DNA from: Lytechinus pictus
Taxonomy: Eukaryota
NCBI RefSeq assembly: GCF_037042905.1
Contig: NC_087245.1
Location: 14,448,001 to 14,512,000, forward strand
Direction: 5' to 3'
Length of the DNA: 64,000 nucleotides
The position numbers were made by a program, and so were the translations under genes. This document shows positions 1-28,400 of the stretch, in pieces (positions within the stretch are counted from its first letter, which is position 1; every line of letters starts with the position of its first letter). A model generated the notes under the pieces. That model did not search any database and was not told the DNA's origin. It saw only the letters and a list, made by a program, of their open reading frames with translations.

Positions 1-1304
1 AAATTAGCAAGATAGGACTTGACATCCACAATATATGCGACATGGGTATCAAGGAACAGTCGTTATATGAACCGATTAGCAGATCTACAAAATTGCAATC
101 CAAAGAAAAGACAATATGTAAGCGGGTAAGCTACAGCAATACGAGTGACGAATCGGTCACGTGTAAGGAAACGAGATTTAAAAAGAAAGATGTCAATTCA
201 AATCGGTACAGTCCTACAATTAATACGACATCGTCGATATTCATACACAATGGAAACAACATTCCATCGTATATCTCGGATTGCCCATGGCTACAAGAAT
301 GTTATTATACGAGTCTAGGGCCAGGGGTATGTCAAGCTGGCACCAGGGAATGCGAGTCATCTGATTTTGAAAGTGATCTCGATCAAAATCATGAAGACTA
401 TGAACTTACAAAACCTCGCGTCAATGACATTCTTATAAACGTTGCTTCCATGGTCTCGCTACCTTCGGAAAAAACGAAGAACGATGGGAAAGTGTGTAAT
501 GTAAAGTATAATTCTTGCCCACCTTCTACCGCTATTACTTATACCAAAGAAAGAGATCGGTGTCCAGCTCAGCATGACGTCGGGAGGCACTTCCTCTCCG
601 ATCACGTACTTCCACAGGAAATGAAAATGTCTAAACTCACTTGCACAACCCAGCCCACCCAGCTTCTCGTTTTGCCTCAAATTGACGTAAAGAGTAATTT
701 TCACTCCCGTACACCAAGAGAAAGTACATCGAAGAAGAAGAAGGCTTGGGGATCACCGGAATCACCTGTCAAGAACTTCCAACCACAATTCCGCGAAGGG
801 GCAAATGTTCCTAAGATTCAGAGTGCACCCAAAGACCAATTTAAATCCGGGTTAATGTGTTCAACACGTGAAATTAATGGCGGAAAGAATGTTAGTAGCA
901 ACGAGACGGGTTTCGTCAAATGTGCAACAAAGAAGGATAAATCCCTACAATATTTCCGGGAATATAGAGTGAACAAACGTGACAAATATAGTGCCAGGTA
1001 CAGTAGCGATAGCATACTTGCTTCTATCAAGACACAGTATGGTGAGGATCAGACCGTGATAAACGGATCTTCTCTGATGGGGATGACCTCATCAAACCTT
1101 CGAAAAACATATGCTTCAAGGGCAGAACGTCTGGAGTACTCGCCTTTGACTAGCCTTAACACTGATTTGGCTCGTTGTGTGAGTACACCGACGATTCGTC
1201 TGCCCTCGGGACCATGTCCTGAAAGAAGGTTACAGGGAATGACCCTTCGTGAATCTTGTTGCTCAAGCCAACCGAATGAACCGAAACGGGCCTCTAATAA
1301 GTGA
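1..1304 (+). CDS. Uncharacterised Ser/Thr/Lys-rich, probably disordered protein; likely the large terminal exon of a gene that starts left of the window
   Basis: 420-aa ORF (42-1304). The same frame is open from base 3 to the ATG at 42, so it may be 5'-partial. GC content is higher than in the flanks. TAA at 1302-1304 is followed by AATAAA at ~1367. No recognisable domain. Confidence 0.6.
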   Translation, partial: ISKIGLDIHNICDMGIKEQSLYEPISRSTKLQSKEKTICKRVSYSNTSDESVTCKETRFKKKDVNSNRYSPTINTTSSIFIHNGNNIPSYISDCPWLQECYYTSLGPGVCQAGTRECESSDFESDLDQNHEDYELTKPRVNDILINVASMVSLPSEKTKNDGKVCNVKYNSCPPSTAITYTKERDRCPAQHDVGRHFLSDHVLPQEMKMSKLTCTTQPTQLLVLPQIDVKSNFHSRTPRESTSKKKKAWGSPESPVKNFQPQFREGANVPKIQSAPKDQFKSGLMCSTREINGGKNVSSNETGFVKCATKKDKSLQYFREYRVNKRDKYSARYSSDSILASIKTQYGEDQTVINGSSLMGMTSSNLRKTYASRAERLEYSPLTSLNTDLARCVSTPTIRLPSGPCPERRLQGMTLRESCCSSQPNEPKRASNK

Positions 1305-5110: not shown

Positions 5111-7066
5111 TATTACATCATATACATTACATAATAATTTTTTAATACCTTTATGAAATATTATGTGTTCATCACTCCTGTTGCTAGCATTGCTAATCCT
5201 GTTCAAGGGGATTAAATGATACTAAATTATTTAGTTTTCAAGTCAATATACACCAACTATATGTCTTCGCACTTCGAGCTTTTATTATTATATGTAGTTA
5301 TATCTTTTTCATGAATACTTAAAGAGACTGCCCCTTTTGGTCTGCTAAATATTTAAAATTTCCACTCCGTGCTTACATTTACATAAGTGGATTGATGGGA
5401 CATGTCTGCTCTTCATGAATTCTCCAAACCAGTCCTTAAAATGCTCAACTTACCCCATGGGTGGGGCAAGTTAAGCCATTTTTTTTTTTAAAGGTGACAG
5501 TGACTTTCAGTGTGGGGATAGAATGTTATATAAACTGAGGTAAAAATGTTTCCCAAGAATTAAATTTGAATTGAAGTAAATCATTTCTACAAGATTATGA
5601 ATCATATAAGTTCTAATATGAAAAAAGCAAAAGATTGCTCAACATACTTCGCCTTCCCCTACCCATGCCCCGGACTGATCCGCAAAGCAGAATCCCACGA
5701 ATAAAAATTTTGTCCACTTTCATGACTTAGACGTTAGAGGAAATAACACGTAAAATTAATGCGATTCGAGGAAGAAAATTCCACAAATCTACCAGATGTT
5801 AAGGTATTTTCACCCCTACCCCCCCCCCCCCAAAAAAAAGAGAAAACAATAATACCCCATATGCATTGAAGTGATTTATAAGAATTAGCTTATGTCATTA
5901 ATCGCATTAATTTAAACCGACACACATTGCTTTGAATGTATGAGTTTATTCAAGCATAATGAACATGCACTTGAAACGTGATGTTTCATCATGCTTACAG
6001 CCTGCACGATATGCCTCCTGGTATTGAACTTGTCCTTGGTGCACAGCTGCGGTAATTTGTCTGGGTTCGAGGTTTTTTTTTTTCATTTGTGGAAAGTAAA
6101 TAATATCACACTCAACTATACCGGATATCTCAGAAAAAATAGGAATAATACGTGTGGACTTTAGATAGGCGTACTCAGTTTACAAAATAATGAAAGTACG
6201 TTGCTGATGGTGGTGGTGGTGGGTGATTGTGGTAATGATGATGATGATGATTAGGATGATGATGTTGGTGCTGATGAAAATGATAATGATGATGATGATG
6301 CCTATCAGTATATCAGTATTATTGATACCAATATGGCTCATCTGGGGATGGACCGCGACATGATTAAACGGGCTGCAGGGGGTCACTGTCCCTCTTTCGT
6401 TTTTCATGTACAAAAAAAATGGAAGGTGAAGGGAGAAAAAGGTTGGAAAGGCTCTTTGAGAGTACTGGGACGTATAAATCTACCCATGAAATAAAGGAAG
6501 GTGTCTTCCTATCCTAGTTGAATGGCGTGCCCCTGTATTTTTTTATTTTCATAGAATACATTTTTGTTAAATGAATTCATCTTAGCATGGTCATGCTTTA
6601 GTATGATCAATAATGAAGACCTAATTCTTTTAACAAATAATGTGCCGTTCTTTGTTATAAACTTTCCTTTTTGGGACCCCCTATTTTATTCGGGCATATC
6701 ACTATCCATTTATTCATTCATTGATTTATTGACGCGCCAATAAATCACTTCACTCGGTTCCTTACACTTTTTGTTATTTTTTTTAATTCTCATTTTATTG
6801 GGATGAAAATAGGATTGACATACCAACAGAGGATTTGTTACCTTCACAAATTAGGACAAACAAGAACGTCACAGTCATGAGCAAATTAAATGGTTTGTAA
6901 TGTTCGCAGTGCATATACATTCCTCTGTTTATCCACCAGCTGGCAACGCACGCCGCGCGCTTGGAGACTTGCCACGCTCGTTCAATGAGTAATCAAACAC
7001 CCCTCAATGACAACGATCTAGTTCGACTGCACACGATAGCCTCTCATTATTGCATCATAACTCAGT

Positions 7067-7864
7067 ATGCCTACTTCATCCAATATCGATATGATGGGTG
7101 AGGGTGACAACACCGTTGACGAGGAAGTCAACTGGTTAGACTGTGTATCGGCCATTGAAACCGACAAAGGAGTTGTTTATTTTTGTAACGTCGAGTATTT
7201 TTCACAGGGTGAAGACCCGACGGGTATAGGATGCGAACAAGATGAAGGATCATCCTTGGATTACAAACAGAATGAAGTCAAGCTTAGGAAGATACCGGAT
7301 GAAGTCAATAGTGTGGAGTGTTCTGAGAAAGGGCGGGTACTTGAGGGAAAGCCAACTAAACCTCTGTTAACGCCTGTGACAGACTTTGTGTCTCGTTTTC
7401 ACCGACTAGGTCAAGGGTGTTTCATGTATTCGATCACCGCCTACAACCCTCAAGACACGCAACAAGACAAGGTCCAGAACTGCAGGAGCAACCAACTGCT
7501 CTTTGCGGATCTCCGTGGCGCCTTCCCTGACTGTGACGTCTTCAAGAACTTTTCCTATTTCCCAGGTAGACCACATCACTTCGAACGGGGATACACGGTA
7601 GTTCTACCATTGGCTTACCAAAAAGATCACGAAGGTATCCTTCACAATCTTGCCCTAAAGTACAAGCAAGCAGCCTATTTCAAGTGCCGTATTCTACCCG
7701 ATGGTAGGAGCACCCAAACCATTGTGCTGCTTGAGGAGTATGTGAAGGAAGTCCAGGAAAGCCTCGTCGTGGTGAAGCGATTAGGGTACCACCCTGCTTA
7801 TCTTACGAGGAAGAACAACAGTGTCTTTCATGGACTTCATGACGCTCTGAGCGTACTCTCAAAG
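7067..7864 (+). CDS. Exon 1: acidic N-terminus, DUF3293-like domain (~7424-7690) and start of the CMPK2-like region
   Basis: The motif SITAYNP-x9-N-x3-N-x2-L..DL...FERGY...LALKYKQAAY matches the remembered DUF3293 signature (ITAwNP...eN..rn..L...E.g....lar.f.Q.Ai). Donor AAG|GTAATT at 7864/7865. Confidence 0.8.
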
Positions 7865-10800
7865 GTAATTTGAAGCCAATGAAAAAAATTAGATCCCATA
7901 TCATCTATAATGTTCGTGGGGGTAGGCGTTGGTGTGTGTGTGGGGGGGGGGGGAGGCGTGCGGATGGGGCGAGGACACCAGTTGGATATATTTCGTATGG
8001 CTATAGCTTGCAATTAACTTCTAAAAATCACTTATTACTTCGGAATAAACTTTCGTTAATCCCCCCAAAAAAAAAACAACACACAAACAAACGTGTGGGT
8101 ACCAATGCAGTGATGGATTCTGAATAGTGCACCACCCTGGTTATCTAATCACGTATCCACAACGAAATACTGACAGAGCAACAAATCTGATGATTCGTTG
8201 CCTGCTTAATATTTTGGAAGCTCCACCTACCCCTCCCCCATCACTGATTGGCATGCTTTATTTATACACACACACACGGGACTTGGTCTACTATTAATAG
8301 CAGATGGTCTAATTCTCACATCTTCTAACACCATCATAACTGAACCAATTTGGTATACACTATCAGGTTACTCTAATTTCCACTTTACCCAACTATCATG
8401 TTCACTTGGTGCAACACTCTCTTGGGCTAACTTTGGTTCATAAAACCATGGAGCTATTAATAAAACGGTTCATCTAATAATACAGGGGCCGCGGAAGCGG
8501 GGGGGGGGGTCACCCCCACTTTTTTTTTCCAAAACCGTGTACAAAAACGTAAAAATGACCATAGGATTGTGATTTTTTGCATGGTCAGCCCCCCCCCCCC
8601 CCTTTTCACTTTGAAAACCGTTCCGCGGCCCCTGTAATATACACTTAGAGGTATTAGACCAAGTGAATATTAGACGAGATCTGTATAAATGGCCTAACTA
8701 GAAAGTAGACAAAATGGCGATAGTATGGTAAATGGGCTAAGAGGCAATTAAACGAGATGGTTACAGTAGTAGACGAACTAGGATTAGACCATGTTGGGTG
8801 AGACCAACTGAAAGTAAATAAGTTGGGTGTAGACTTAGCGGCAATTTAGCCCACGTATCATCACGATCATACGTCGTGCTCTTCACGTCACCACATGCTT
8901 GAAAGGCGTGAAATGATGAAATATTGATTTTATTAAGATTCCATATGCATGGTTTCGTCTATCCTAAATTAACATCAAAGTTTCGATGGGGATGATATCC
9001 GGGGGAGAATTGTGTAGAACCTTAAAGGGGTTATTCTGGCCGGGAAACAACTGAGCTATAGGATAACTATATACAAAACGTCAAAGTTTGAAGGTCAAGT
9101 CCACCCCATCAATCAAATTCAGTTGAATAAATTCACAAAAAATAAACAAGCCCTATACTGAAAATTCTTCAAAATCGGATGTAAGATTAGAAAACATTCA
9201 ATTACAAAAAATGATACTTTTCACGCACTTCGTTTACTCATAATCTAGTATTCTATTCATATTTATTATTTGTTGCAATACCCCCTTTGATATTATTAGC
9301 ACATGTACGGTTAATACACTTCCAAAATGAATAATGTTTGTAATGTAAAAGATTCAGACTCTTTTGATTTGTTATGTGTTTCTTTCCATTACTCTTTTGT
9401 TTTCTGTGTTTGTTATAATAATGATCATGATAATAAAAAAAAATTGGCATTGCTTCGTACTTCCATTCTACAGTGTGACTATTTACCCGAGGCTGGTGAA
9501 TTAATGAAAATAGCCCATTGTGAACTGACATTGTCGACGACTTGTAACCATGGAAATCAAAGAGCTTATAATCACCCAGTAATCGTGATGGAAGGAACAA
9601 GTGAGGCAGGTACGTAACCTTACTCCAAAATGGCGATCAAATTTGGGGGTTAACTTTTAAAACTGTGTCACTTTACGATGCAGCTTCTATGACGCGCTTA
9701 TAGGGAAAAGCTGAAGTTTCTCCCTCTCCACCTTTTATAGTGTTGTGACTTCTTTGGTTGCTCGACAAAATTTTGTTTAAGGCTTTTTACTTTTATTTTC
9801 TCCTTTTTTTCTCCCCTCTTGCAGTTTGCCCCTTTTTACCCCACTGTACCTCTCCCGTGAAGCACAACTATTGTTCTTAAAAACGCTCCTGCAAGTTCCT
9901 CTTTACTTCAAAGAGAAATGTAAGATTTTTTTTTTTTTTTTTTTTTTTGGGGGGGGGGGCTTTCACTTCTCTTTGCGACCGAAAATGTTAACCAGGGCCC
10001 CGTCTTACAAAGAGTTACGATTGATCCAATCAATCGTAACTCTATGGAAATCCATCAGTGTCATAATTTTTTCTACAGAAAATTTGCACAATGTCCTTTT
10101 TCACAAAGAGAAGCATAGTAAATTTTCAAGAAAACAATGAGTGATTGAATATATACATTATAGTTAGAAAATATTTTGTACAAACATGAATAATACATGT
10201 TGACGTTGCTGGCCGTCCGCAGTTGTGATTGATTGGATCAATCGTAACTCTTTGTAAGACGGGGCCCTGATCGCTCATAGAGATCCTAAAAAATCACCTA
10301 GGAATGTTTGTTGAGAGGTGTATGGTACATTCGACCAAGAAGCATGTTTTCATGCAACTTTTTCTTGACAATGCGTCATTCATTTTTTTACGCAAAAGGT
10401 CTCATAATTATGGAAGAGGAAGAGGAATATTTAAGTTAAGAAATTGTTTTCTGAATAGATAGCAGTAAAAGTCAGCAAAACTCACTCAAAATCATAATTT
10501 GCTCGTGCAAATGGAAATTTTGTACCACCAATTTTCATTTTTGTAACTCGGTCATCCGGGCATTATGAACGTTGAGATACATGGATCTCAAATGAAAGAA
10601 GAAAAATATATCTTTCCATTCTTGTACATTTTATGAAGCAAATTTATGAAGATGATAGGACAAATTTAAACGGAATCACGTTTTTTTTTGCCTGTGGGAC
10701 GCACTAGATATATAGTGGGGTTGATTGAAAGACCGATTATTGCATGTTCAATGCATTCAATATTTGTTTAGTCCTATCCCCTCTCCTCTCCTCGAAATAT

Positions 10801-13800
10801 ATATATTATTATATATAGTATTTCATTACCTAACTACTATAGTACCTTGGTAGCTCGAGATAGAGCCGGTTGAATAACAATTGCCCTTTGGTTTCACTGA
10901 CAAATGTGTTTCAATCTAGCAATCACGGCTATTTATATTATCATTGTTGTTGTTTATTGCCTTTATTATCATCTTCAATATTATTATCATTAGAATTATT
11001 ATCATTATTATATCAATCAAAGTTAGGTTCGGTATCTCCATAATATGTTCTTTATAAAGTCTTCGCTATTGTATTCAATTTATGTAGAGAGTAAAATAAT
11101 GATTATGAAAAAGGGGCAATACATATTTTTTCAATTTTCCCAATGTGCAGTGCTCACGAATATTCATGAATGATAAACTGGTCGGTGATAGGCCTTCAGA
11201 AAATTCACTCGTCATTATTTGCTTGGTCATTAAACGTCTTAAGAAGACTTGTCTTAATCTAGATATGAAACCACAAAGACATTCATTTATTTCTTATTTA
11301 CCCTAAATTTCATTGTGCAGATATCTTTGTTGATTGATACTTTAACAAACGTTTCCATAATATACAGGGGCGGATCCAGCCTTCGCCAATAGGGGGGCCC
11401 GGAATTTTTTTTCAGCCACATTTTCCCCGATCGGCCGCTCGAAGTTAATTTTTGTTTGTTTATATATAAATATATATTAATATAATATCATAAGCCTTAT
11501 TTAAAAGTGCGAGCTTTTTTTATTTTATGTATTTTGTCTTAAAATTTAAACATTTTGGGCAATGTTTATGATCTTAAACGAGATGTGTATCCAACTAAAT
11601 AATTGCTGCGAGCGCGAAGCGCGAGCAGAAACTTTTAATATACGTTTTGATTTGATAAAAAGGGATCTGCTAACGGCAGCTTGTTAGCCATGATAACGTT
11701 ACATATTTCAACTATCAAATAATGCGAGCGTGAAGCGCGAGCTGAAAATTTTGACATTTCTACCTGAAGAATGGAAAAGGAAAAGTTTAACTAAATAATT
11801 GATGCGAGCGCGAAGCGCGAGCTGAAAAAAATTAAAGGGGAATCCAGCCTTGGCCATAAAATGTTGTGTTGGGAAGGAGAAAAATAAATTAAACAGAATT
11901 GTGAAAGTTTGAAAGAAATCGGATAAGCAAAAAGAAAGTTATAGCTGCTTTAAAATTGAGATCACTAATACTATGTAGATTTCAAATTGGCAACTGGGTA
12001 AGTAAATTATGACAAGGGGCAAGGACAACTTTTCCATAGGCCATGTACTTTATTATCAGGGATTTGTGGTTTTCTCTTAAGTACCCATTCCCCTGGGGGA
12101 GTAATCTAAATATAACCCAGGTAGTATATTGTTTTATGTCCTCATGAAAGAAAAATATAATTTGAAATAAAACTTTTGGGAAAAATGACATTATAGCCAT
12201 AATATGTATTGGAGTACATGGAAGAGTAGTCCTTGCCTTACATCACTATGACATCCCATATGCGGCCAATTTGAAGTCTCCATGGGTATAGTGATTACCA
12301 ATATTTACAACTTTTAAAAATGCATAACTTTCTTGTTGTTTGTCCAATATTGTTCAAACTTTCACCTATCAACTTGTCTGATTTTTCTTTTCCTTATAAA
12401 AACACGTTTTTATTTGGGTAGGATTTCCCTTTAAGATTTAAACTCTAGATATTTTGTAAATCATGAAAAGGATGAGTAATTGGAAATCTTCCTACATTAA
12501 TAATGCGAGCGCAAAGCGCGCAAGCAGAAAAAAAAATATTTTTTTAATATACGTTTTGATCTGATCAAAAAAGGATCTGTTAACGGCTACTTGTTAGCCA
12601 TGATAACGTTACATATTTTAACTATCAAATAATGCGAGCGCGAAGCGCGAGCTGAAAATTTTGACATTTTTACCTGAAGAATGGAAAAGGAAAAGTTTAA
12701 CTAAATAATTGATGCAAACGCGAAGTAAGAGCTGAAAAAAATAAGATTTAAACTCTAGATATTTTGTAAATCATGGAAAGGATGAGTAATTGGAAATCTT
12801 CCTACATTAATAATGCGAGCGCAAAGCGCACAAGCAGAAAAAAAAATTATATACGTTTTGATCTGATCAAAAAAAGATCTGTTAACGGCTACTTGTTAGC
12901 CATTATAACGTTACATATTTTAACAATCAAATAATGCGAGCGCGAAGCGCGAGCTGAAAATTTTGACATTTCTACCTGAAGAATGGAAATTCTAAGCACT
13001 TTTTGTAATCGTGAAAAGGATAAGTATATAACTAAACAATTGATGCGAGCGCGAAGCGCGAGCGAAAAAATTCTGGACACTCTATTCATGTTTTGTCAAT
13101 CATGAAAAGGATGAGTAATTGGAAATTTCCCTACATTAATAATGCGAGCGCAAAGCGCGAGCAGACATTTTTTGATATTGTGATCTGAAACTGGATAATG
13201 ATTTAGATAGAGAACAATCTGCGGATCTGAATAAACGAGTGTTTCAGATTCGACCTAGTATTTGGGTATTCTAAATACCTTTCTTATCATGAAAATCAAT
13301 AAAGCGAGTGCAAAGCGCGAGCTAAAAATACAAGATATTCCCATCTAAAAAAGGGTAAATTTAAGCTCTGTATTTCAAGAACTTTGTGGGAGAATTGTGA
13401 GGTGGGTATGGATCACAGTTAAAAAAGAGCTAATATGTTTCATTAATATTACTTTGAGTTTTTATATAGGACCGGGACATTCTATAGGGACATTATGTCA
13501 TCATATGAAAATGATGACTATCTTCCTATTTCCCTTCTTAAGCATGCATAGCGCAAAATCAGTTAATATTATGGCCTGAAAACTGGACGTTTAAAGCACT
13601 TTTGTAATTATGAATAAGATACACGAGTTAAATATCTTTCAACAATCAATGCGTGCGGAAATCGCGAGCCGAAATTTTTGATAAACTGTTATCAAAATTG
13701 GGGAGTTTAATATACTTGACTCACCCATCAAAATGCGAGCGTGCAGCGCTAGCTGATACGTTTTGACAATATGACCCGAATAGGGATATTTTGATAACTT

Positions 13801-16449
13801 TATGGAATACAGGAAAATAATAGGTATCTGACAAATCAAATTTTGCGAGCGCGCAGCGCAAGCAGAAAATGTTAATATTCAGACCATAAAACAAAAAAAA
13901 ATACAGAGCATTTTTCAAAAATCAATTTGTAAATCAAACAAAATAATGAAAGTTCAATTTCCGAGCTGAAATATGTTTTGTATACCGACTTCAAAATTTG
14001 ATATTCTAAGCTTCATATTGAGCAAGATATGTAAATCACCTAAAAGGGAATGCGAGTGCAAAGCGCGAGCGAAAATTTTATATCCCGACATGAAAGATTT
14101 TTTATAATTATTTTCCAATTCTTCCCCTCATCTTATTTTATTCACTCGTCTTCCCCCTCTTATGTTTCCCTTTTTTCTCATCTCTTTTCCCTTCTTTTTC
14201 TTTTTTTCTTTCTTTCCCCCTTTTTATCTTTTTTTGCTCCGCCAATAGGGGGGGGGGGGGGCGGGCCCCTCGCCCCCTGGATCCGCCTATGATATATATG
14301 TATTTTTTGAATTATTTCCAAAAGTGAGGTTTTGCATCGATTAACAAACGAAGAAAGAGGTTCAAGTTTGCACCCTAAATGCCACAGTCGCAGCAAAAAG
14401 GTGCAAAAAAATTATTTGACTCCTTTAAGGTGGAAAAGTCTTATGTTTGTGATACATAATGGCACCCAAAAAGGAGCTTCTGTCGTGGTGCATAAATATG
14501 AAGGTTACAATGTCATGCTAAAGCATTTTTTTAAAGAGCGATATGAACCTTTTGTAATTATCATTTCTTGGTAAAAATCAATGTCTTCCCTTTACTGTTT
14601 TGAATTTCAACCTTTTTTATCTTCATCATTTTACTTCTTAAATGGTAGCCAGTCATGTAACGTTTTGTGTTTTTGTTTACTTTGTAGAAATAAAGATGAA
14701 TCAATCGATTGTTATTACAGGTTTATCCAATCACACCTTCCGCCTCAGTCAAGCGATCGGCGGAACTCGTCTCCAGTCTCCACCATCTTGCGTGGCGCAT
14801 CTCAGGGAGGCGTTTGTGAAGCAGAACAAACTGATCCAAGCAGCTTACTACACCATGTGTAACTACATCCTGGGTTCGTACGTAGAGAAAGCAAGAAAGA
14901 ATGCACCTGTGGTGCTAGACAGGTTCGTAACACACTCTCGCTCATTTATTTTAGTATAGGCTTAGTTCTTCACATGAGCTTCTAGTAGCTACTATACTAC
15001 TTCCGAAAATGAAATACCAACTATACCCCCATCCTTTTGTTATGCTTTGAAGTGGCATATCAGGGAAGAACACTTAGCATGCAGGGTATCAGTCAATTAG
15101 GGCCATGCTTCTGTTCCAGGTCACATACGACTTGGAAGCTTTGTCACATCTGACCTTATTCTTGGTATTTTTTTAACCCAAACGGAGTTCGAGTGTGGCC
15201 CCAACTGACTGATGTCCAGATCAAATCCGATCCTGGGCTTTTGAGACGCTCTGAGTGTAAATGTTCTTTTCAATTCTCAGGTTCTGGAACAGCACCGCTG
15301 CTTTTTCTATAGCGTCGGAGATTGAGAGAGGCGTATCGAACCTCCCACCGAAAGATCACTTTGTGTATGAGTGGCCACAGGACCTCACCAAACCTGACGT
15401 AGTCATACTAGTTGGATCCAAGAAGGCCATACGACACAAGAGCAACCGGAGCGGTGGCGAGCGTATTACCAAACAACTGTAAGTTAAAAACCTTTCTGGT
15501 TTGAAAAAAAAATTGTGAATCGTTTTTGCCTATATCTCATCCTTAGCTACGGAGCCTTTAAAGTGCCATCGACTTGACGACTTGGCGAGATACTTTATCT
15601 TGCCATGACGACATAATAACCTTATTATGTCGACATGGCGAGATACGTTATCTCGCCAATTCGACTTATAAAAGGTTATATGTCAACATGGCGAGATACG
15701 GTATCTGGCCAAGGTGACATATAACTTTTTATAAGTCAACTTGGCAAGATAACGTATCTCGCCATGTCGACATATAACCTTTTATAAGTCGACTTGGCGA
15801 GATAACGTATCTCGCCATGTCGACATAATAAGGTTAATTAAGGATGTTTAGCGCCCTCTTTCGGTATAAAAAAAATAAAGACAAGATAATGATTGCATAT
15901 TAAAAAAAAGCTGCATTCAAAGATTACATCTGCTATTTTGTAAATGTGTGGATTGAAAAAGTAAAAATCATTAATGGGATTTTAAATACAAAATAGCCTA
16001 TATTTACATCGGAAAGAAAAGGATGAAGAAACGTATAAAAGGTAAAATCATATTTTACCTAAGCTAATGCAAAGATGTTGATTATTAAGTGATTCAATCA
16101 CATCAATATATCTGGAGGGTGCGCCTTTTGACCAACTGCATTGCTCTTTTTGATCTATTGTTTTCCACGTTGTCACAGGATGTTTGAAATCTTACGCCGG
16201 ATGAAGACTTCGTCTTGGATCGAAGTTGATAGTATCCGAGACCAATGCCATTCAGATGAAGCTGTTACCATGGTGACAGTGGACAAACTGCAGTCCAAGA
16301 ATATTGGTAACTTCCGGTCCGGCCCTAAAGAGAATGGGATGTGTCCTGGTACCGGACTGTATGCAACCAAGGAACACGATACCCTGCCCGTTGGCGGGCT
16401 TGTGGTACTTAAGGAAAATTTAGAACAGGAAGAGATTGGATTCATGTGA
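7067..16449 (+). CDS. Five-exon gene: DUF3293-like domain fused to a CMPK2-like (UMP-CMP kinase 2 / thymidylate kinase fold) domain with a degenerate P-loop; 534 aa
   Basis: Exons 7067-7864, 9474-9609, 14721-14922, 15281-15478 and 16179-16449. All introns are GT-AG with compatible phases (0,1,2,2). The spliced product reads SVFHGLHDALSVLSK|CDYLPEAGELM...HPVIVMEGTSEA|GLSNHTFRLSQAIGGTRLQSPPSC...PVVLDR|FWNSTAAFSIASE...NLPPKDHFVYEWPQDLTKPDVVILV. This is colinear with vertebrate CMPK2 as I remember it (PEARAVL...VVAIEGLDATGKTT...KSPPSC...PVIVDRYWHSTATYAIATE...LPPAHHPVYQWPEDLLKPDLILLL). Confidence 0.85.
8483..8634. mobile_element. Short hAT-like MITE
   Basis: TIRs CAGGGGCCGCGGAA / TTCCGCGGCCCCTG, internal polyG/polyC tracts, and imperfect AT-rich TSD (TAATAATA/TAATATAC). 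Confidence 0.75.
9474..9609 (+). CDS. Exon 2 of the DUF3293-CMPK2-like gene (PEA helix, beta1 and first half of the P-loop)
   Basis: Acceptor TTCCATTCTACAG| and donor GCAG|GTACGT. Encodes CDYLPEAGELMKIAHC...HPVIVMEGTSEA. Confidence 0.8.
9993..10269. mobile_element. MITE with ~43-bp perfect terminal inverted repeats
   Basis: CAGGGCCCCGTCTTACAAAGAGTTACGATTGATCCAATCAATC at the left end and its exact reverse complement at the right. A diverged second copy lies at 35376-35649. Confidence 0.9.
11365..14291. mobile_element. ~2.9-kb non-autonomous TIR DNA transposon with internal ~300-bp tandem duplications
   Basis: Ends CAGGGGCGGATCCAG / CTGGATCCGCCTATG. Many GCGAGCGCGAAGCGCGAGC motifs. A repeated internal unit occurs at ~11630-11830, ~12440-12740 and ~12740-13050. 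Confidence 0.8.
11836..12430. mobile_element. TTAA-targeting MITE (Kolobok/piggyBac-type) nested in the 11365-14291 element
   Basis: TTAA|AGGGGAATCC...GGATTTCCCT|TTAA. The corresponding uninterrupted sequence (GCTGAAAAAAATAAGATTTAAACTCTAG) is seen in the tandem copy at ~12732. Confidence 0.8.
14721..14922 (+). CDS. Exon 3 of the DUF3293-CMPK2-like gene
   Basis: Acceptor TTATTACAG| and donor AG|GTTCGT. Encodes (G)LSNHTFRLSQAIGGTRLQSPPSC...APVVLDR. An in-frame alternative acceptor lies at ~14687. Confidence 0.85.
15281..15478 (+). CDS. Exon 4 of the DUF3293-CMPK2-like gene
   Basis: Acceptor TTCTCAG| and donor CT|GTAAGT. Encodes FWNSTAAFSIASEIERGVSNLPPKDHFVYEWPQDLTKPDVVILV, including the CMPK2-typical WPxDLxKPD. 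Confidence 0.9.
15565..15836. repeat. Foldback array of ~42-bp units in inverted orientation
   Basis: Units such as ATGTCGACATGGCGAGATACGTTATCTCGCCAATTCGACTTATAAAAGGTT run forward to ~15710 and then appear as reverse complements. Each unit is itself hairpin-forming. Confidence 0.8.
16179..16449 (+). CDS. Exon 5 (terminal) of the DUF3293-CMPK2-like gene
   Basis: Acceptor TGTCACAG|. MFEILRRMKTSSWIEVDS parallels CMPK2 YQRMENPGCHVVDAS, followed by a C-terminal extension. TGA at 16447-16449. Confidence 0.75.
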
Positions 16450-16667
16450 ATTTAGAAAATTGAAAAAGATACAACATCCACTTCGTAAAGGTGGTATTGA
16501 TAATTATAGCAGAATACCAAAAGATGCATAAAGTTTTGGAGGAAATTCGTCAAAGAACTATCTTTTTTTTTGTGACGTCACATGCCAGCAGCGCCCCCAT
16601 ATGCATTGTGATATGTCGTGGGACCCTCTGTCGTCTAGCTAGAAGGCTTGCTTTTCACACTACACTT

Positions 16668-17444
16668 ATATGCTTTTCACACTGCACATATTTTCCTTAA
16701 CCCCAGGAAATTGGCGGGGCTGGGGGGGGGGGGGGTCTTAGCCCCACCAATTTCCTGGGGTTTAGGCATAGGCGGCGGAAGCGGGGGGGGGGGGGACCTG
16801 TCCCCCCCTAAATTTGAGGTGGGGGGGACGATCCCCCTAACTTTATAGTGGATAACCTTTTTTTTTTTTTTTTTTTTTTTTTTTGCTTGTCAATTTTGTT
16901 TCCTACGCGTCCCCCCTAAAAGTTTAGTTGATAAGATAACATTTTTTTGTTTTGCTTGTCAATTTTGTTTCCTGCGCGTCCCCCCCTAAAAATTTGGTTG
17001 ATAAGATAACTTTTTTTTGTTTTGCTTGTCAAAATTTTTTGGTGGTCCCCCCCCCTAAATTTGTTGGCTTCCGCCGCCAATGGGTTTATGTTGGCCCACT
17101 TCAGTTTCACACTACGTTTTAGCAAAGTGGTCTAGCACGGTAAATAGTACGGCACTATCTGGCCCTGCAAAAAAAAAGCAGGGTTAGTCGGCTAATTACG
17201 GTGCTAAGAGATGCAGTGTGAAACGAAACCGGGCCAAGGATCGAGTGAGGCTAAGCATTAGCCAGTCACAGAAGTCGAAATTGCATGTTAATCACGCTCT
17301 GTGTGGCAAAATATCCATGAACCGTGCGATAGTCCGGGGTTAAGGCGTTAAACCCGGCTAAGCAAATAGTACGGGGTTAAGAAAGACAATGTGAAACCCC
17401 CAAAAGATAGTATGGGGTTAAGGAAATGCAGTGTGAAAAGCATA
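16668..17444. mobile_element. Nested MITE cluster just 3' of the CMPK2-like stop codon
   Basis: Outer TIRs TATGCTTTTCACACTGCA / TGCAGTGTGAAAAGCATA. Inner hairpin CCCCAGGAAATTGG...CCAATTTCCTGGGG (16701-16760). Inner hAT-like MITE at 16767-17082 (CATAGGCGGCGGAAGC / GCTTCCGCCGCCAATG; TSD GGTTTAGG/GGTTTATG). Confidence 0.75.
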
Positions 17445-19872: not shown

Positions 19873-20760
19873 AGCTCTTTACATGTATAATGGCATTTGA
19901 TATTGCACGAACTTGAGAACGTAGGGGTGGGGTTGTGTGTTTTTCTTTCATATTTCTATCGGGGATGCTTTGCGTAATGATAAATGAAGAGCTCGTATTA
20001 AAGTTGTTGGAATTGAATAACATTAAAACTGAAATATGGAAAATTATTAATATGCGCATATTTTTTTGTAGATTTAAGTAAAACTCGTTTTTCAAAGCCC
20101 CCCAAAAATGTGTATTATCAACTATATTTCGTTCATTTTGTTATATACGTGTACCCGTATATTTGCTAATGCCCTCTTAACGTTGCCCATACCCAGGGAT
20201 ATCGGTTTGAAAACGACACCACCAGCTTATTGTAAAAATAGATTCTAAGGCCAATAGGCTCATTGATTAAGGAGTGCCCTCCTCAAGATTCGTCAAGTGC
20301 ATTCCGAAAGGCAGAGGACATATAGCGATATCAACAGTGATCTTTGGAGGAAATCTGCATAGCTCAGGTGACTCTCTGCGAAATTGACAAATTATTGAAA
20401 TATGGTGAATTTTCGTCGCTATGATACGATCTTTTAACTTGTCTTAAAACTGATCAATTAAGCCATTAAGGAAACGTGTGGTTTTTTTTTTCTACAAAAG
20501 AGAAACATTCGACGTTAATAGAAGGGTGCTACATAAACATTGATGTAACTGCATTAAAGGAGCCATAAACGTAACTTGTAAGTAGAGCTTTGTACATCAA
20601 TATGTGTTAAAACTTAATTGGGACATAAATACAACTTTAATGGCTCAATTTGTTTTATGTTTTTAAAGCGGTGACGAAATTATTGACTGGACACAAAAGC
20701 AGTTCGAAGAAAGCGGAACGAAGAATTTGTTTTTAGCCAAGCTTCTATTCTATAAAAAAA

Positions 20761-21310
20761 ATGCAAAATTACAGCCCAGAAACCTGGACACCAGTTAACC
20801 CCCAGAGAACTCCATCCACCTCATCATCGACTGCAACGATAACAGGGCATCTCATTGCTCCTCGTCCAGAAGCTGCCCCCATTGGCCACTTGACCGCCCC
20901 TCATCACCCGACATCGGCCGTACCGCTAACCCATCGCTATACTTCTTTCTACAACAATTTGGATGGCAGCTCGAGTAATTCCTCGGCCACCATCCCGCCC
21001 TACAACGATGAATACTCTGCGTGGAATTCCTTCGATTTTTCATCGCCGACGACCCACCCCCACCCACATCAAGCGACAAGGAGTCCATTTGCAGCTGCCG
21101 TGCATCATGGCCACTTTCACCATCACAGTCCCACTGCAATGACGCCGAACCCACAACCGACCGGTCTTAATCCCACCGCTGCCACCATGGGTGTTGGTTC
21201 ACAGCACCGTGACACGCTGCTCTCTGCAGCGGCTGTGGCATCAGCAGCAGCGGCGGCCGCGGTCTCAGGGAGCAACTTCGTCAACATTTCTCATCGACAT
21301 CCTTCTTTCA
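20761..21310 (+). CDS. Hox gene exon 1 (low-complexity transactivation-type region)
   Basis: GC-rich [12 protein letters not shown]...HRHPSF with donor A|GTAAGT. Phase 1 matches the exon 2 acceptor. Confidence 0.8.
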
Positions 21311-24300
21311 GTAAGTATGATATGAAATATTGAAAACATGCTAATTAAGAAAATTACGCCTACATAACACTTAATCAAAACTATCATCAGTTTTGCAGTT
21401 TTTAAAGGTTGAAAAGAAAACAGATACAGTATACATTCATTTGTTATATAAAAAAAAAAATAAACACACCTTAACTTTCATAACTCGAAGATTTGCGACT
21501 CCCTTAATATAAAAGCAATAAGCTAGCTAAGCTAATATTTGATGCGAAATATCAAACAAAAAGTAATGATAACTTTGTTAAATGTATGTAACTTTCGACA
21601 TAATACATGTGAAACAAACTATAATTGAATCTTGAAATACCTATATTAACTCAGGGAGTTGAGTTTAGACTCTCAACTCCCTGATTAACCTATCGATGAG
21701 CAAGATTATTCCCCTTAAAATCCTGCATATTGATAAACTATAACACGAAAAGCATGCAACAAAAACAACAATAGAAAGCTTCCATGCAGTCTCCTTTCAA
21801 ATTTTGACAAGTTTGGGCATGACTCTACTTTCATTTGGTACAATCAGCCGAAAATCATCATTAGCCCAATATAATCGACTTTTCAATATGTATATTTCAG
21901 GTCAGAAAAGGGGCGTAACATTTTGACCAATGAAAGTCGTCCCCCCCCCCTGATTTTGAAGCAAAAACAAATTGTAACTAAAAAGGACTAAGTGGTAAAT
22001 GGGCTTAATGGCAATTAGACTAATTGGTTAGGAGACAAACTAGCCGTAGAGAAAATAGGATTATTTAGACTGTGTAGGATGAGACCAAACAGAACGAAGA
22101 CAAAATGTGCTAAGTGCCAATTTATCACAATAACAGAGGATGCTTGGTCACTTCTTAAAGTACTTTTTTTGTCATGAAATGAATATGTTGATACTTTTTA
22201 GCCTAATTTTTTAAAGAGAGATTTTCACGAAAAACTCAGAAAGAACTCAGAAATATCGAGAAGAATTGACACCCCAATAAAGCGACTTGTTTAACCCGAC
22301 TGTAAACCAGTCTTTGAATTGAGTTGGTGTTTTGTTATTAAAAAAACAATATTGCTTATAATGGGAGCATGTTATGTGAACAATGGTGGAAACTGTGGCG
22401 GTGTGTATTGTTTGAATGCTGCTTTGGCAAATAATTCAAAATTTGTAAATCTTCATTGTCTAAAATCTCTTGAAAAAAGAAACTTGCTAAGATAGCTGCC
22501 ATTTGCCGTTCAGAGACTCTATACATTTTCATCAGAAACGAAATATAATATCCATAAAAAATAGTTAAAAACAAGAAAACATAAAATTCGCAGCGTAAGA
22601 GCAATGGTAGTTTTAATGTATATTTCAAGCTTCCATGACAATACAATATTAAATGAGCAAGGCACGGTCATGACGGTGGTTACTCATTGTTCTTTATGAA
22701 CAATTTTTTTCTGTAGTTTATGGAAAACTGCTTATTCCAAAGCATTTAATAAATTAATTTGTCAACATTCTCTACAAATAATATTCTCATAAATATATAA
22801 TTAATTCCCGCGTTTTGATGAGATAAATTTATAATTAATTGGCCATCAACTATAAACTAATAAATATGATTTTTTTTCTAATAGTATATTATAGATAACA
22901 TACATTATGTCATTCGCGTTCTGAAACCATGGAAACTATCGGTCTTTAGATTTTATAATCAGCGTCATAAAAATAATGTTTGAAAGTTAATAAATATTAT
23001 CTATTTGTTGGATGGTTATGAGAAAGAACCAGTATTTCCAGAACTACTTCAAATTCTACTTCACACATTTTCGGTCAGCCATTTAGAACTCCTGCAGATT
23101 TCACAAAGATCATGGTTACAGTATTTGTCCTACCTTTTAATCACAAACGGATGCTAACTGTAGATAAACAGAAAGTCAGCCACTTCTCTTTATCAAAATA
23201 TCCTCTGATAGAAGTTTATAGAACATTATTTGTCATATCATACTTTTAATGACGTGCTGAGAAAAAGGAATTCTAATAATACGATTTAGATGTCAGTCAT
23301 TTAGCGCTGATTTTTTTTTTACAGGTGTTTGGTTTTTATTTCATTGATACAATATAATAATGAAATTATATGTTATTAATATTACCGCTATGTCCTAATC
23401 CACTGTTTAGTACGCTAGTTAACAAAACGGCAGGCTATAATGTACAGATTACAACTTTTATGGAGATTGTTACTTTTTATGATTATAACAAAAAATTATC
23501 CCCAATTTCATTCACTGTACTACACACATTTAGGAGCTTCTATGGAGACCGTTCACATGGCACGGGTCCAATATAAGGATTGTTTAGAATTTTAGTGTTT
23601 CGCAGTTTATGATGCCACATTAAAACTATATCAAATGCTGATATTGAAAAGACACATATCAATTTTTATGTAGAGACAGTGGAAACGTGCGAATGGCTGA
23701 ATGCTGTGCGCTTTTGGAGTATTTAAGTGCAAAATACCGCACGCGTTTCTACCCGCTTAATGTTAGAGATAGGACGAGGGCCTTGGATCATAAGAAAATA
23801 AATAGCGGATATAAAGTTTTATAGACGATGAGAAGGTATAGTGTGTCGGTATTCCGTTTATATGAATGGTACCAGCACATGGTATACTAGAATACAATAA
23901 GAAATAAGATAGAATGGAAAATATTTTTTATGAAGTCACGAGAAGATAAATTGAAGGCTATATACCCTGAAATCGAGTTTATTAGCATGATTAGATTGAC
24001 GGGTATGACTGTCAGATAGATCCTACATGATGAATGCGTGATAGAAGCGAGAGAGTAAGAGAGAGAGAGAGAGAGGGAGGGAGAGAAAATGAATGGAGAG
24101 GAGATGGAAGAAAAAGAGAGTTGGTTGTCAGTGATAGATGGATATGTAAAAGGAGAAATGGAGAGGGAGTATACAAGAGAGAGAGAGAGATTCATCGTAT
24201 TTTTTTGTAATCATCATCATCGCAATTTGTAATCATCATCATCACAATTACCAGTCTTCATCATCATCACATTTATTGTTACTATCATTTTTAATTGTAT

Positions 24301-25400: not shown

Positions 25401-25437
<37 letters not shown>

Positions 25438-28400
25438 TGTGTGTGTATGTGTGTGTGTATGTATGTATGTATTTTATTCAGAAATTATGAAGGCTTGGCA
25501 AGACTTAAGGAGATTTCGTTATTCTGAAGAGGAGGTTAACCCTATTATATTCAATAATCAACATATTTGTATAAAAGGTAAAACAATTTTTGACAATGAT
25601 CTTTTTAATAAAGGAATATTTAGCGTTGATCAAATCTTTGATAATGGCCACTTGAAGCCTGTGACTTTTTTTCAAAATCTCGGTATTACCGCAAATCAAC
25701 TTCTCCAAATAATAGATATTGTGCACGTTATACCAGCAAGCTGGAAAATTTTTAATAGTTTAATAAAGTTTAAAAAAATTGATTTGGTAGACTTTGGGAT
25801 AAGTATGAATATTGGAAAACAGGAAACAGCTTTTGAAGTAATTAAATCAAAAACAATTTATAACTTGTTTATTACTAAGCTACAAGAGCTATACAAGTTA
25901 ACACTTAAGGATGGTCACAGTGATTTTGATTTTACTGATGTAGAAATTTGTAAATTATTTGAATATATCAGGAGTACAACTCTTATAAGAAAACAAAGGG
26001 AATTTCAGTTTATGCTTTTACATGGAGCAATATATACAAAAGAGCATTTGATGAGATTTGGTTTCGTGGGAGATAATTATTGTTCGTTTGGTTGTACAAA
26101 AACTGAATCGTACTTTCATATACTCATGGATTGCATAAAAGTTAAACCTCTTTGGCAATTTTGTATTGATCATTTTTGTTTAGCTGAATTAAGAACTTTG
26201 AATTGGAGGGAAATATTCTTAGGGTTACCTGGAAATTCTTGTAGAATTAAATGTGTCAATTCTGTTATTCTTTTTATTAAATATGCAATTTTTAATTCCA
26301 GAGCTGAAGGCCGGGTACCGTCATTTATTAAAATACACAAATATATAACGGGTTGTATAGAAGAAGAAAGACGCCTGGCAACGAAGTCAGGCAAGTTAAG
26401 TTTACATTTGCAGAAATGGGATGAACTGAAGGTGAAAAGGGATTTGAATGTGAACAGGTGGGATGTGTCTAGTGTGGTGCGAGTGTGAATCCTGGTGTGT
26501 ATGTTGATGTTTTTTTTTCTTTTTACTAGTTCTTTTCAATTTCCCCTTCTCTTGTATCAATATGATTTGCAGGGTTTTTTTCTTTCTGTATCCTATTGCG
26601 CCAAAATGTTAAACGTTCATTATGCAGATTTGTATATATTATGTTTGTTTACGTATGCGTGGTATGTGCATGTGTGTATGGGTGTTAAGGTGGGTGTGTG
26701 TATGTGTGTATAATTATGTAAAGTTATGTTGAAGCTTGATTTAAAATGGGATGCAATGATAATACATTTAGGTTGATTTCTGTTTTCCTGCAAATCATTT
26801 ATATAGCCGTTTAACATTAATTATTATTGAAATACATAGAGGGTTGGGGACTCAGTTGAGTTATTTTTTTTTTTTTTCAGATATGAAAATATAATTTTAA
26901 GGAGTTTCATTCCGTCCTTATTTGCTTCAGTTCTTGGTAAATATATGTACTTTTTTGCATATCCTTGTTGATATGAAATGAAGATTTGTATTTTGTTTTG
27001 TATTTATCTGCAGTTTATGTAATTCATTTGAATGAAATCCTTAATAAAAACATATTGAAAAAAAAAATGTATACTTCCACATATTTTCCTCATATACTAA
27101 GCTAAGACACTCATTCCACAGTTTTTGGCTAGGGACGGCAGAATTTATGAGCAATTTGCACCCAAAAATAATCCACAAACTAGTTACGAGGACAAACTAT
27201 TTAGTTAAATTCATAATCTTAGTTACAGTGTGTTTTTTTATTATAATACTTGACGTTGATATCATTTGCTATTCTCCTATCAAATCTTTTTGAAATAAAA
27301 TTCCGACAGCTTCCTCTGTTGTAGTTTCATATTCATATAGTTTCAGTTCTTTTCATCATATTCATCATATCATTGTAGTCGTCACCATATTGTCATCATT
27401 AACATCTTTATCGTTATTATTCATCGTCAATCGAAGTTCCATCATCATGGTCGTGATCACAATCATCAACATAAACTCATCATGGTTGTCGTTGCTATAT
27501 CTCAATCACCACCACAGCAACTGGCGTACAGATGAAGAGTGGAGGTGGTGGGGGGGGGGGGGTCTTGGGGCCATGGACCACACCCCCTCCCCCAATTGTT
27601 CATGATCAAGTAAACAGGAAGGAAAGGGTGTGAAATATATTTTTTTCTAGATTTTTTGTCAAAATCTATCATAGACTTTGATTTTTTAAATTCGTATTGA
27701 AAAGGTCGCTCGCTCGCAGCTTTTCAGAGATTTTCCCTGTACGCTATGTCTGGCCCCCTTCGTCAAAATTTTCGACTCACTACGCTACTTGCCATGGCCA
27801 CTACATAATTTACCACTTACGTCAACACCATTGCCACACCACCACTGCCACACCACCACCACCATTTAAACATGCAGAACTCACAGAATAGATCTATCTT
27901 TATTTCCCCCACAGCGTCACAAAGCCATGGCAGCAACTGGGTTCCGCCGTCATCGTCCAGTTCGGCTCGGAGGACGAAAAGGAGACCGTATTCGAAGCTC
28001 CAGATCATCGAACTCGAAAAAGCTTTTCAAGAAAACATGTACTTGACAAGGGAGAGGAGGACAAGAATAGCAGATTCTCTTAATCTCACGGATCGACAGG
28101 TCAGTAAAGATATGTATATATATACAGAATACAGATCTTTCAGATAGATATATAGCAAGCTAGATGGATAGATAGATAAACTGATAGTAAGACAAGTTAG
28201 ATGCATATATCGTTTGGTAGACATCTAACATCTGGGCCCCATTGCATAGAACTTACCTTTATGGTAACTTTGTCATCCAATGGTAACCTCCATGGAATCC
28301 TTGATTTTGATTGGCTGTTGATCATTGTTTCCATGGTAGTTACAATTGGATGGCAAAGTTACCGTAACAGTAACTTTTATGTAACTGGGCCCTGAAATCA

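Follow-up and report, generated by a model that had tools for sequence, protein, structure and literature searches.

The 64,000-nucleotide (nt) window of the Lytechinus pictus genome analyzed here (contig NC_087245.1, positions 14,448,001 to 14,512,000; coordinates below are counted from the first letter of the window) carries one expressed five-exon gene at 7067-16449, which is the echinoderm orthologue of CMPK2. CMPK2 is the mitochondrial UMP-CMP kinase 2, an interferon-induced partner of viperin/RSAD2. Exon 1 encodes the CMPK2 N-terminal domain (NTD), which is homologous to the DUF3293 family (Pfam PF11697) and belongs to its superfamily, and exons 2-5 encode a domain with the thymidylate kinase fold. 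Models of the NTD and of bacterial DUF3293 resemble phage S-adenosylmethionine (SAM) lyases, and the kinase-like half, having lost the lysine of its P-loop, is predicted to be inactive. We consider it probable that this account is correct as a whole, namely that the gene is an expressed CMPK2 orthologue with a DUF3293/SAM-lyase-like NTD and a dead kinase, and that the protein would function through the NTD.

Gene model and transcription

A sequence-only reading of the window had proposed that an open reading frame (ORF) at position 7067, which looks like a complete gene, carries a phase-0 donor two codons before its stop and continues by splicing into a kinase. The ORF (7067-7873, plus strand; 268 amino acids plus stop) was confirmed in the sequence, as was the donor AAG/GTAATT at 7864/7865. 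With GT..AG at every intron border, the five exons form a single open frame of 1605 nt (534 amino acids), the exon count and protein length being those first stated.

Four sequencing runs carrying the same species label were mapped on 6500-17000, two as contigs (X1 and X19) and two as raw stranded RNA reads (X21 and X22). The joint 7864/9474, which skips 1609 nt with GT..AG borders, was present in all four runs (contig depth 75 in X1 and 6.8 in X19; three reads in X21 and two in X22), and the hidden splice that joins the 268-codon ORF to the downstream exons is thereby confirmed. The joints 14922/15281 and 15478/16179 were also found in 4/4 runs, each in both contig runs and in 3 and 4 raw reads, and RNA contigs span exon 2 (9472-9611) and exon 5 (16179-16473). 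First mates of the exon reads lay on the minus strand only, which fits plus-strand RNA in a stranded library. Depth was zero at 7904-8254 in every run; hence no read-through past the donor to the stop of the ORF was seen.

The remaining joint, 9609/14721, was not among the 15 joints listed of the 65 in the RNA mapping. It is supported indirectly, being consistent with contig overhangs (one contig ends 8 letters past exon 2 and another begins 17 letters before exon 3, at 14718) and with the gap-free alignment of echinoderm proteins across the junction. An in-frame acceptor at about 14686 was also considered for exon 3 but ruled out, as the RNA contigs begin at 14718 and their overhangs fit 14721.

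Orthology to CMPK2

A search with exon 1 for longer proteins returned five matches of 489-556 amino acids that contain both halves (E 1e-43 to 1e-96) and align end to end with the 534-residue model. Three of these are named UMP-CMP kinase 2 (sea cucumber, brittle star and crinoid), one is an uncharacterized protein of the sea urchin Diadema and one is an unnamed protein of 538 residues. An exhaustive phmmer search of exon 1 against 1.84 billion representative sequences gave 15 matches, all belonging to this family, including amphioxus CMPK2 (461 amino acids, with a canonical P-loop) at E 4.8e-9 over the N-terminal domain.

For profile comparisons with hhalign we aligned ten exon-1-only proteins (alignment A1), 14 vertebrate CMPK2 proteins (A5) and seven mollusc-type CMPK2 proteins (A6; five named mollusc records and two unnamed). 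A1 matched A5 over 192 columns covering the vertebrate NTD (98.9%, E 1.4e-17) and A6 at 85% (E 6.1e-6); the domain is probably homologous to the mollusc CMPK2 NTD as well. In the C-terminal half, the thymidylate-kinase-fold domain aligned without gaps to amphioxus and echinoderm proteins named CMPK2; the earlier description of this half as CMPK2-like was correct. When amphioxus CMPK2 was searched against the 811-Mb assembly, this locus alone was returned, with three exon matches that all fall inside the window (E 1.9e-10 and 7.8e-9 for exons 3 and 4); it is the only CMPK2-family locus found in this genome.

The N-terminal domain and DUF3293

The assignment of exon 1 to DUF3293 in the sequence-only reading is borne out by a Pfam match, by profile-profile alignment and by a structural match. 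PF11697 aligned to residues 123-203 of the window protein (P0001) over profile positions 1-72 of 73 (21.4 bits, E 4e-4). Matches with E values of 3.5e-5 to 9e-3 were obtained in 12 of the 28 proteins scanned: the window protein, 5/5 full-length echinoderm proteins and 6/8 unnamed exon-1-only proteins, as against 0/9 vertebrate, 0/2 amphioxus, 0/1 Ciona and 0/2 mollusc proteins. All but one of the 12 span the profile from position 1 to 70-72 of 73, and the last, P0012, spans 2-68.

Bacterial DUF3293 proteins were collected from two phylum samples, of which one gave 9 positive genomes out of 301 and the other none out of 401. The resulting alignment (A3) comprises eight full ORFs, all above the Pfam cut-off (best E 4.2e-15), and is narrow, as it represents one phylum and seven of its eight proteins are close relatives. 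A1 aligned to A3 at 91.4% (E 9.1e-7), with 31% identity over 72 columns corresponding to residues 123-205. The motifs I-T-A-Y-N-P, F-E-R-G-Y and K-Y-K-Q-A-A-Y-F were paired with I-T-A-F/H-N-P, C-E-E-G-Y and R-Y-E-Q-F-A-V-F, respectively, and N138 with an invariant Asn. Of the bacterial hallmarks, the window NTD thus has I-T-A-Y-N-P, E173 and Q201; the position of the bacterial Gly is occupied by Ser here and by Gly or Ala in some relatives of the window protein. An AlphaFold2 (AF2) model of exon 1 was built from a 40-row alignment (mean predicted local distance difference test score, pLDDT, 76.5; 85-97 over residues 110-230), and its best viral-model match (rank 1 in BFVD) is a phage "DUF3293 domain-containing protein" (E 9.7e-6, target-normalized template modeling score 0.74, root-mean-square deviation, rmsd, 3.5).

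The vertebrate NTDs alone fall short of DUF3293, the comparison of A5 with A3 giving E 0.57 in a wrong register. As the echinoderm-type sequences do reach the bacterial family, they form the bridge that exposes the relationship.

Several results weigh against the DUF3293 assignment. The score of the window protein is below the PF11697 gathering cut-off of 25 bits, which none of the 28 proteins reached (best 24.8 bits). No bacterial protein was recovered by phmmer of P0001 against the 1.84 billion representatives, and a profile search with the NTD only, limited by its word index, found 17 proteins among 5.8 billion, all of this family and none bacterial. PF11697 had no match at E <= 0.01 in the window's own genome, and an NCBIfam scan returned nothing. 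We nevertheless regard the homology as established.

A second group of NTDs (P0012-P0018, P0143 and P0148) keeps F-E-R-G and the Gln, and several of its members keep T-A-Y-N-P. In P0148, which JGI lists as UMP-CMP kinase 2, an NTD of this kind stands beside an intact G-K-S P-loop, so there are proteins whose two halves are both in what is presumed to be the ancestral state. Among the bacterial DUF3293 proteins, seven of eight have a conserved N-terminal extension of about 90 amino acids, the eighth (L007) being without it, and in loci L008-L014 the gene lies between an SLT transglycosylase gene and gyrA.

A SAM-lyase-like fold and the putative ligand residues

The nearest ESM Atlas clusters to residues 95-266 are from phages and carry PF23780 (S-AdoMet lyase), some of them also PF11697 (scores 0.86-0.89); we treat this proximity as a lead only. 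When the NTD model was compared with the PDB by Foldseek, 6zm9 and 6znb (Svi3-3) and 8bb1_E (T3 SAM lyase) occupied ranks 1, 3 and 7 with probabilities of 0.97-1.0. A Foldseek-independent search of 48,161 chains placed the T3 SAM lyase (SAMase) chain 7ock_L first (Z 10.4, rmsd 3.5, 126 of 152 residues); it was the only chain with a Z of at least 8, and was followed by 6zm9_A (Svi3-3, Z 7.8), a de novo design (Z 7.5) and generic GGDEF/ferredoxin-like chains (Z <= 6.8). For a model of bacterial DUF3293 (8-row alignment, mean pLDDT 71.4), the two best chains were again 7ock_L (Z 8.7) and 6zm9_A (Z 5.4), and just three chains had Z >= 5. By these matches the NTD model has the SAM-lyase fold, an alpha-beta sandwich with a five-stranded sheet. 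As modeled, then, DUF3293 and the NTD both fold like the phage SAM lyases T3 SAMase and Svi3-3.

According to the portion of Guo (2021; PMC7877911) available to us, Gly56, Glu69 and Gln104 are the only strictly conserved SAMase residues, and all three contact the ligand. Their equivalents G55, E68 and Q94 (T3 numbering) are invariant in an alignment of eight T3-type SAMases (A4), and G80, E87 and Q109 are invariant in A3. Within A1, E173 is nearly invariant and Q201 invariant, and residue 163 is Ser, Gly or Ala. The AF2 model places residue 163 on strand 2, E173 on strand 3 and Q201 at the beginning of strand 4, which follows helix 2, a layout equal to that described in the same text. Alignments of A1 and A3 with A4, both weak, share one register in which N138 is paired with T3 N27, E173 with E67/E68 and Q201 with Q94. 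Residues 163, E173 and Q201 would therefore correspond to the SAM-lyase triad G55/E68/Q94, an equivalence that is based on these alignments and on strand order rather than on residue-level superposition.

The kinship with SAM lyases also has results against it. No Foldseek match in the PDB had E <= 0.001; the fold is ferredoxin-like, with many unrelated chains at Z 6-7, and both AF2 models are of medium quality and rest on shallow alignments. Comparisons of A1 and A3 with A4 were not significant (E 0.21, probability 0.3%, and E 0.037, probability 1.4%, respectively), and A1 against the single T3 SAMase sequence gave nothing. PF23780 had no match at E <= 1 in P0001 or its relatives, while T3 SAMase itself scores 143 bits; eight NTD and two DUF3293 proteins had no informative match in PHROGs, where T3 SAMase matches phrog_2226. 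A sequence-profile search of the PDB with the NTD found chance antibody matches only (E >= 0.09). Furthermore, the window protein has Ser at the position of the SAMase glycine. A complex prediction with three copies of residues 95-266, run without controls, scored 0.00 and speaks neither for nor against a trimer, the form in which SAM lyases have active sites at their subunit interfaces.

The NTD may bind an adenosyl-sulfonium or nucleoside ligand such as SAM, a proposal to which we give even chances. It might also cleave the bound SAM-type ligand, which we hold to be rather unlikely. The main rival, to which we assign a substantial probability somewhat short of even, sees in the NTD no more than a module for structure or protein binding, either a descendant of DUF3293 or a mere ferredoxin-like look-alike, with neither a SAM ligand nor SAM chemistry and with the Glu and Gln kept for folding or for partners. 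The vertebrate, amphioxus and mollusc NTDs manage without E173 and Q201, yet the human NTD is functional (Pawlak, 2023; PMC10150978, as far as its available text goes). The insignificant similarity to SAMases in sequence and the crowd of ferredoxin-like chains speak for this rival as well, as do the bacterial DUF3293 neighbors examined (gyrA, SLT transglycosylase, a phosphoribosyltransferase-like gene and DAHP synthase), which are housekeeping genes without a hint of SAM. Against this rival it counts that T3 SAMase is the single best match for two independently modeled proteins, well above the generic chains, that the three positions which define SAMases (Guo, 2021; PMC7877911, available portion) are the invariant ones in bacterial DUF3293, and that two of the three are kept across the echinoderm classes.

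The kinase half

The three further exons were said in the sequence-only reading to complete the kinase fold. They are present and CMPK2-like, but the P-loop that crosses the joint of exons 2 and 3 reads G-T-S-E-A-G-L-S, with a Leu codon (14723-14725) where canonical CMPK2 has Lys. In P-loop kinases this lysine contacts the phosphates of ATP. In alignment A2, GK[ST] is absent from the window model and from 7/7 other echinoderm rows, which have Val, Ile or Met for Lys, and G-K-T/S is kept in all 19 non-echinoderm kinase-bearing rows (amphioxus, Ciona, 14 vertebrates and one JGI protein); four exon-1-only rows with misaligned tails were dropped from this count, and ten others have gaps there. Compared with amphioxus, the lid region is shortened. 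PF02223 (thymidylate kinase) scored 14-29 bits in four echinoderm proteins and had no match in two, against 43-71 bits for canonical CMPK2. On the single exons of the window it was weak (E 0.053, exon 4); of the two Pfam families expected for the model, DUF3293 was thus seen below its cut-off and thymidylate kinase weakly only.

The motifs D-R-F/Y, S-P-P-x-C, N-Y-I and N-L-P-P are retained across the echinoderm classes, which indicates that the domain is under selection, and it may still bind nucleoside monophosphate. From its sequence we judge it very likely that the kinase half no longer transfers phosphate, i.e., that it is a pseudokinase. The converse, that the protein is an ordinary CMPK2 enzyme still active as a UMP/CMP kinase through a non-canonical P-loop, is improbable. 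Loss of the P-loop lysine predicts rather than proves a loss of activity, the domain is conserved across the classes together with its motifs (D-R-F/Y in every echinoderm row), and the Amphiura protein lies above the PF02223 cut-off at 29.4 bits; against this, a hydrophobic residue replaces the Walker-A Lys, the contact to the ATP phosphates, in 8/8 echinoderm sequences including that of the window, the lid is shortened and the PF02223 scores are far under those of canonical CMPK2.

A C-terminal extension of about 60 amino acids (16290-16446 in exon 5 of the window; C-termini of P0002-P0006) is common to the echinoderm CMPK2-like proteins, and amphioxus lacks it. Its features include a conserved Cys-Pro and, in four of the seven full-length proteins, the window's included, the ending I-G/P-F-L/M.

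The N-terminus and the viperin context

Within their first 30 residues the echinoderm proteins have 0-3 Lys plus Arg and 5-12 Asp plus Glu (0 and 7 in the window protein), whereas amphioxus and most vertebrate proteins have 5-7 and 0-2. The acidic echinoderm N-termini, set beside the basic chordate ones, suggest that there is no mitochondrial presequence, and on composition the protein is probably not imported into mitochondria in the chordate way. Across the 64 kb of the window no ORF resembling viperin was noticed, and an exon-by-exon search of the 811-Mb assembly with the viperin profile TIGR04278 gave no candidate, which is weak evidence and is not taken as absence.

Proposed function

Because the kinase half appears inactive and mitochondrial import of the chordate kind unlikely, we propose that the protein acts through its NTD. 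The kinase half, presumably inactive yet under selection and with its monophosphate-site motifs kept, could still be of use as a scaffold or for nucleotide binding. The two halves appear to have decayed reciprocally: the echinoderm proteins retain the NTD motifs but not the kinase, and those of vertebrates retain the kinase but not E173 and Q201. The available text of Pawlak (2023; PMC10150978) describes the human NTD as antiviral without kinase activity and assigns it no known homology; an NTD-based function fits this kinase-independent role.

The sequence-only reading had taken the joining of the two domains as a hint that DUF3293 acts in nucleotide metabolism or innate immunity. The hint survives in a sharper form: because DUF3293 and the NTD resemble phage SAM lyases in structure, it now suggests chemistry related to SAM and not nucleotide metabolism in general. 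Viperin, the partner of CMPK2, is a radical-SAM enzyme, which is suggestive and in line with a SAM-related NTD.

A more far-reaching proposal, which we regard as speculative and a shade less likely than SAM cleavage itself, is that the CMPK2 NTD descends from a bacterial or phage enzyme of the SAM-lyase type, DUF3293, and that the ancestral viperin-CMPK2 module coupled a radical-SAM enzyme, a CTP-supplying kinase and a domain for binding or destroying SAM or a nucleoside derived from it. In echinoderms, with the kinase half dead and the Glu and Gln kept, the protein would still be a SAM-cleaving or SAM-sensing immune effector, which might starve the methylation of viral caps or genomes. If true, this would account in chemical terms for the report that the human NTD blocks viral translation independently of the kinase.

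Two-domain architecture and novelty

The apparent fusion is the normal CMPK2 architecture. The sequence-only reading had called the two-domain protein undescribed and had suggested a look at other animals. Both halves are in fact carried by sea urchins, sea cucumbers, brittle stars and crinoids, in proteins some of which are already named UMP-CMP kinase 2. In print, as far as the available texts extend, a human NTD (residues 23-201) plus kinase domain has been defined (Pawlak, 2023; PMC10150978), and an NTD of the human type, in the NTD-plus-kinase layout, has been reported in nearly all Deuterostomia (Shomar, 2023; bioRxiv 10.1101/2023.09.13.557418); the architecture is therefore not new. A lineage-specific event that joined a bacterial-type domain to a CMPK2-like kinase would suit the otherwise bacterial and phage distribution of DUF3293 and its absence from the literature searched, but it is highly improbable given the presence of this two-domain protein in all these echinoderm groups, the homology of the NTD to those of amphioxus, vertebrates and probably molluscs, and the published layout; lineage specificity is refuted, and only the DUF3293 assignment of the NTD stays new. 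Least probable of all, to the point of dismissal, is that the 268-residue ORF is a stand-alone intronless gene with the downstream exons belonging to another transcript: gene predictors did call exon-1-only proteins in several related assemblies (P0007-P0009, P0012-P0018), but spliced contigs and reads link 7864 to 9474 in every run, depth is zero after the donor, and a 2167-nt contig of a relative encodes the complete fused protein of 538 amino acids.

The literature searched, with subscription journals and the annotation in InterPro and other databases outside its scope, had no mention of DUF3293, and within the same scope (bioRxiv supplements also outside) CMPK2 was not paired with SAM lyase, SAMase or SAM hydrolase. 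Among the titles of the literature that mentions CMPK2 and sea urchin, none concerned echinoderm CMPK2. Neither the relation between the NTD and DUF3293 nor the echinoderm loss of the P-loop lysine appears to have been published.

CMPK2 is a widely studied interferon-stimulated gene, and the gene described here is a sequence bridge that leads from the vertebrate NTD (E 1e-17) to bacterial DUF3293 (E 9e-7) and, by structure, to the phage SAM lyases. For DUF3293 this is the first clue to a function and the first setting in a eukaryote. The consistent absence of the P-loop lysine from the echinoderm proteins amounts to a natural separation-of-function allele; the NTD would have persisted over hundreds of millions of years with no functional kinase beside it, which agrees with the kinase-independent role seen in human cells.

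Features of the locus and the rest of the window

Table 1. Exons, first intron and N-terminal domain core of the CMPK2 orthologue, in window coordinates
Feature	Position	Strand	Content and basis
Exon 1	7067..7864	+	266 codons; ORF, donor, RNA splice, AF2 model, hhalign
Exon 1, parts			acidic N-terminus; short beta-hairpin at residues ~22-46; disordered linker 53-93; CMPK2 NTD
DUF3293-like core	7433..7681	+	residues 123-205; Pfam PF11697, hhalign, conservation
Core motifs		+	I-T-A-Y-N-P; N138; F-E-R-G (E173 at 7583-7585); K-Y-K-Q-A-A-Y-F (Q201 at 7667-7669)
Intron 1	7865..9473	+	1609 nt, GT..AG; contains the ORF's own stop, 7871-7873
Exon 2	9474..9609	+	linker helix C-D-Y-L-P-E-A-G..., strand V-I-V-M-E-G, first part of the degenerate P-loop (9594-9609)
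Exon 3	14721..14922	+	opens G/GT-TTA-TCC; S-P-P-S-C, N-Y-I and D-R motifs
Exon 4	15281..15478	+	F-W-N-S-T-A-A..., N-L-P-P, shortened lid region
Exon 5	16179..16449	+	end of the kinase-like domain and echinoderm-specific C-terminal extension ending I-G-F-M, then stop

Two introns of the gene are repeat-bearing. In intron 2, the segments 9659-10360 and 11765-12466 are very high-copy repeats, with a summed contig depth of about 1e5, raw RNA reads at about 100x on both strands and many loose ends at 9991-9995, 10267-10272 and 11832. Intron 4 contains, at 15550-15830, palindromic units of about 40 nt that have one core in both orientations and look like a miniature inverted-repeat transposable element or a foldback element.

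Just upstream of the gene, a Ser/Lys-rich open frame of 433 amino acids (3-1304, plus strand) runs off the 5' end of the window and had no Pfam match. Downstream on the same strand lies a homeobox gene, recognized by an apparently intron-cut ORF at 27809-28147 with a homeodomain (PF00046, E 5e-12, profile 1-44 of 57); the ORF at 20737-21333, rich in Ser, Ala and His, is a candidate for its first exon, and a 350-amino acid open frame at 25436-26488, with a sub-cut-off match to zf-RVT (E 3e-5), is probably a retroelement fragment in an intron of that gene. On the minus strand, a multi-exon gene extends over about 42100-60530 and encodes CUB (three exons), fibronectin type III (two) and C-type lectin (two) domains.

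Comparison with known systems

With vertebrate and amphioxus CMPK2 the window protein shares the domain order, the linker helix, a homologous NTD, a kinase-fold domain that aligns throughout and a single locus in the genome. It differs from them in having a P-loop of the form G-x4-G-L-S instead of G-x4-G-K-T/S, a shortened lid, an added C-terminal extension of about 60 residues, and an acidic N-terminus where they have a basic presequence. In addition, the echinoderm NTD retains I-T-A-Y-N-P, F-E-R-G and K-Y-x-Q-A-x-Y-F, which vertebrates have lost.

DUF3293 shares with the NTD a near-full profile match and the motif order I-T-A-x-N-P, N, E-x-G/S and Q-x-A/S-x-F. In the window protein, however, strands 2 and 3 are joined by a longer loop, the invariant bacterial Gly is represented in the NTD family by Ser, Gly or Ala, a kinase-like domain follows in the same chain, and the NTD has the extra N-terminal hairpin and C-terminal helix that are common to all CMPK2 NTDs.

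Unlike the phage SAM lyases (T3 gp0.3 SAMase and Svi3-3; PF23780; PDB 7OCK, 8BB1, 6ZM9 and 6ZNB), the window protein is eukaryotic, multi-domain and not a counter-defense protein; it has no significant sequence match to them and has Ser in place of their strictly conserved Gly. These enzymes, which cleave SAM to MTA and homoserine lactone, are nonetheless its best solved structural neighbor. The order of strands and helices agrees with the available description (Guo, 2021; PMC7877911), and the Glu and Gln of the NTD stand at positions weakly aligned with the ligand-binding E68 and Q94. The SAM-AMP lyases of CorA-associated type III CRISPR systems (PDB 9GAB) are a far weaker match than T3 SAMase and are without a contextual link, but they belong to the same fold family (Foldseek rank 42 for the NTD, Z 4.2 for DUF3293) and illustrate that the range of this fold in immunity includes the handling of SAM-nucleotide conjugates.

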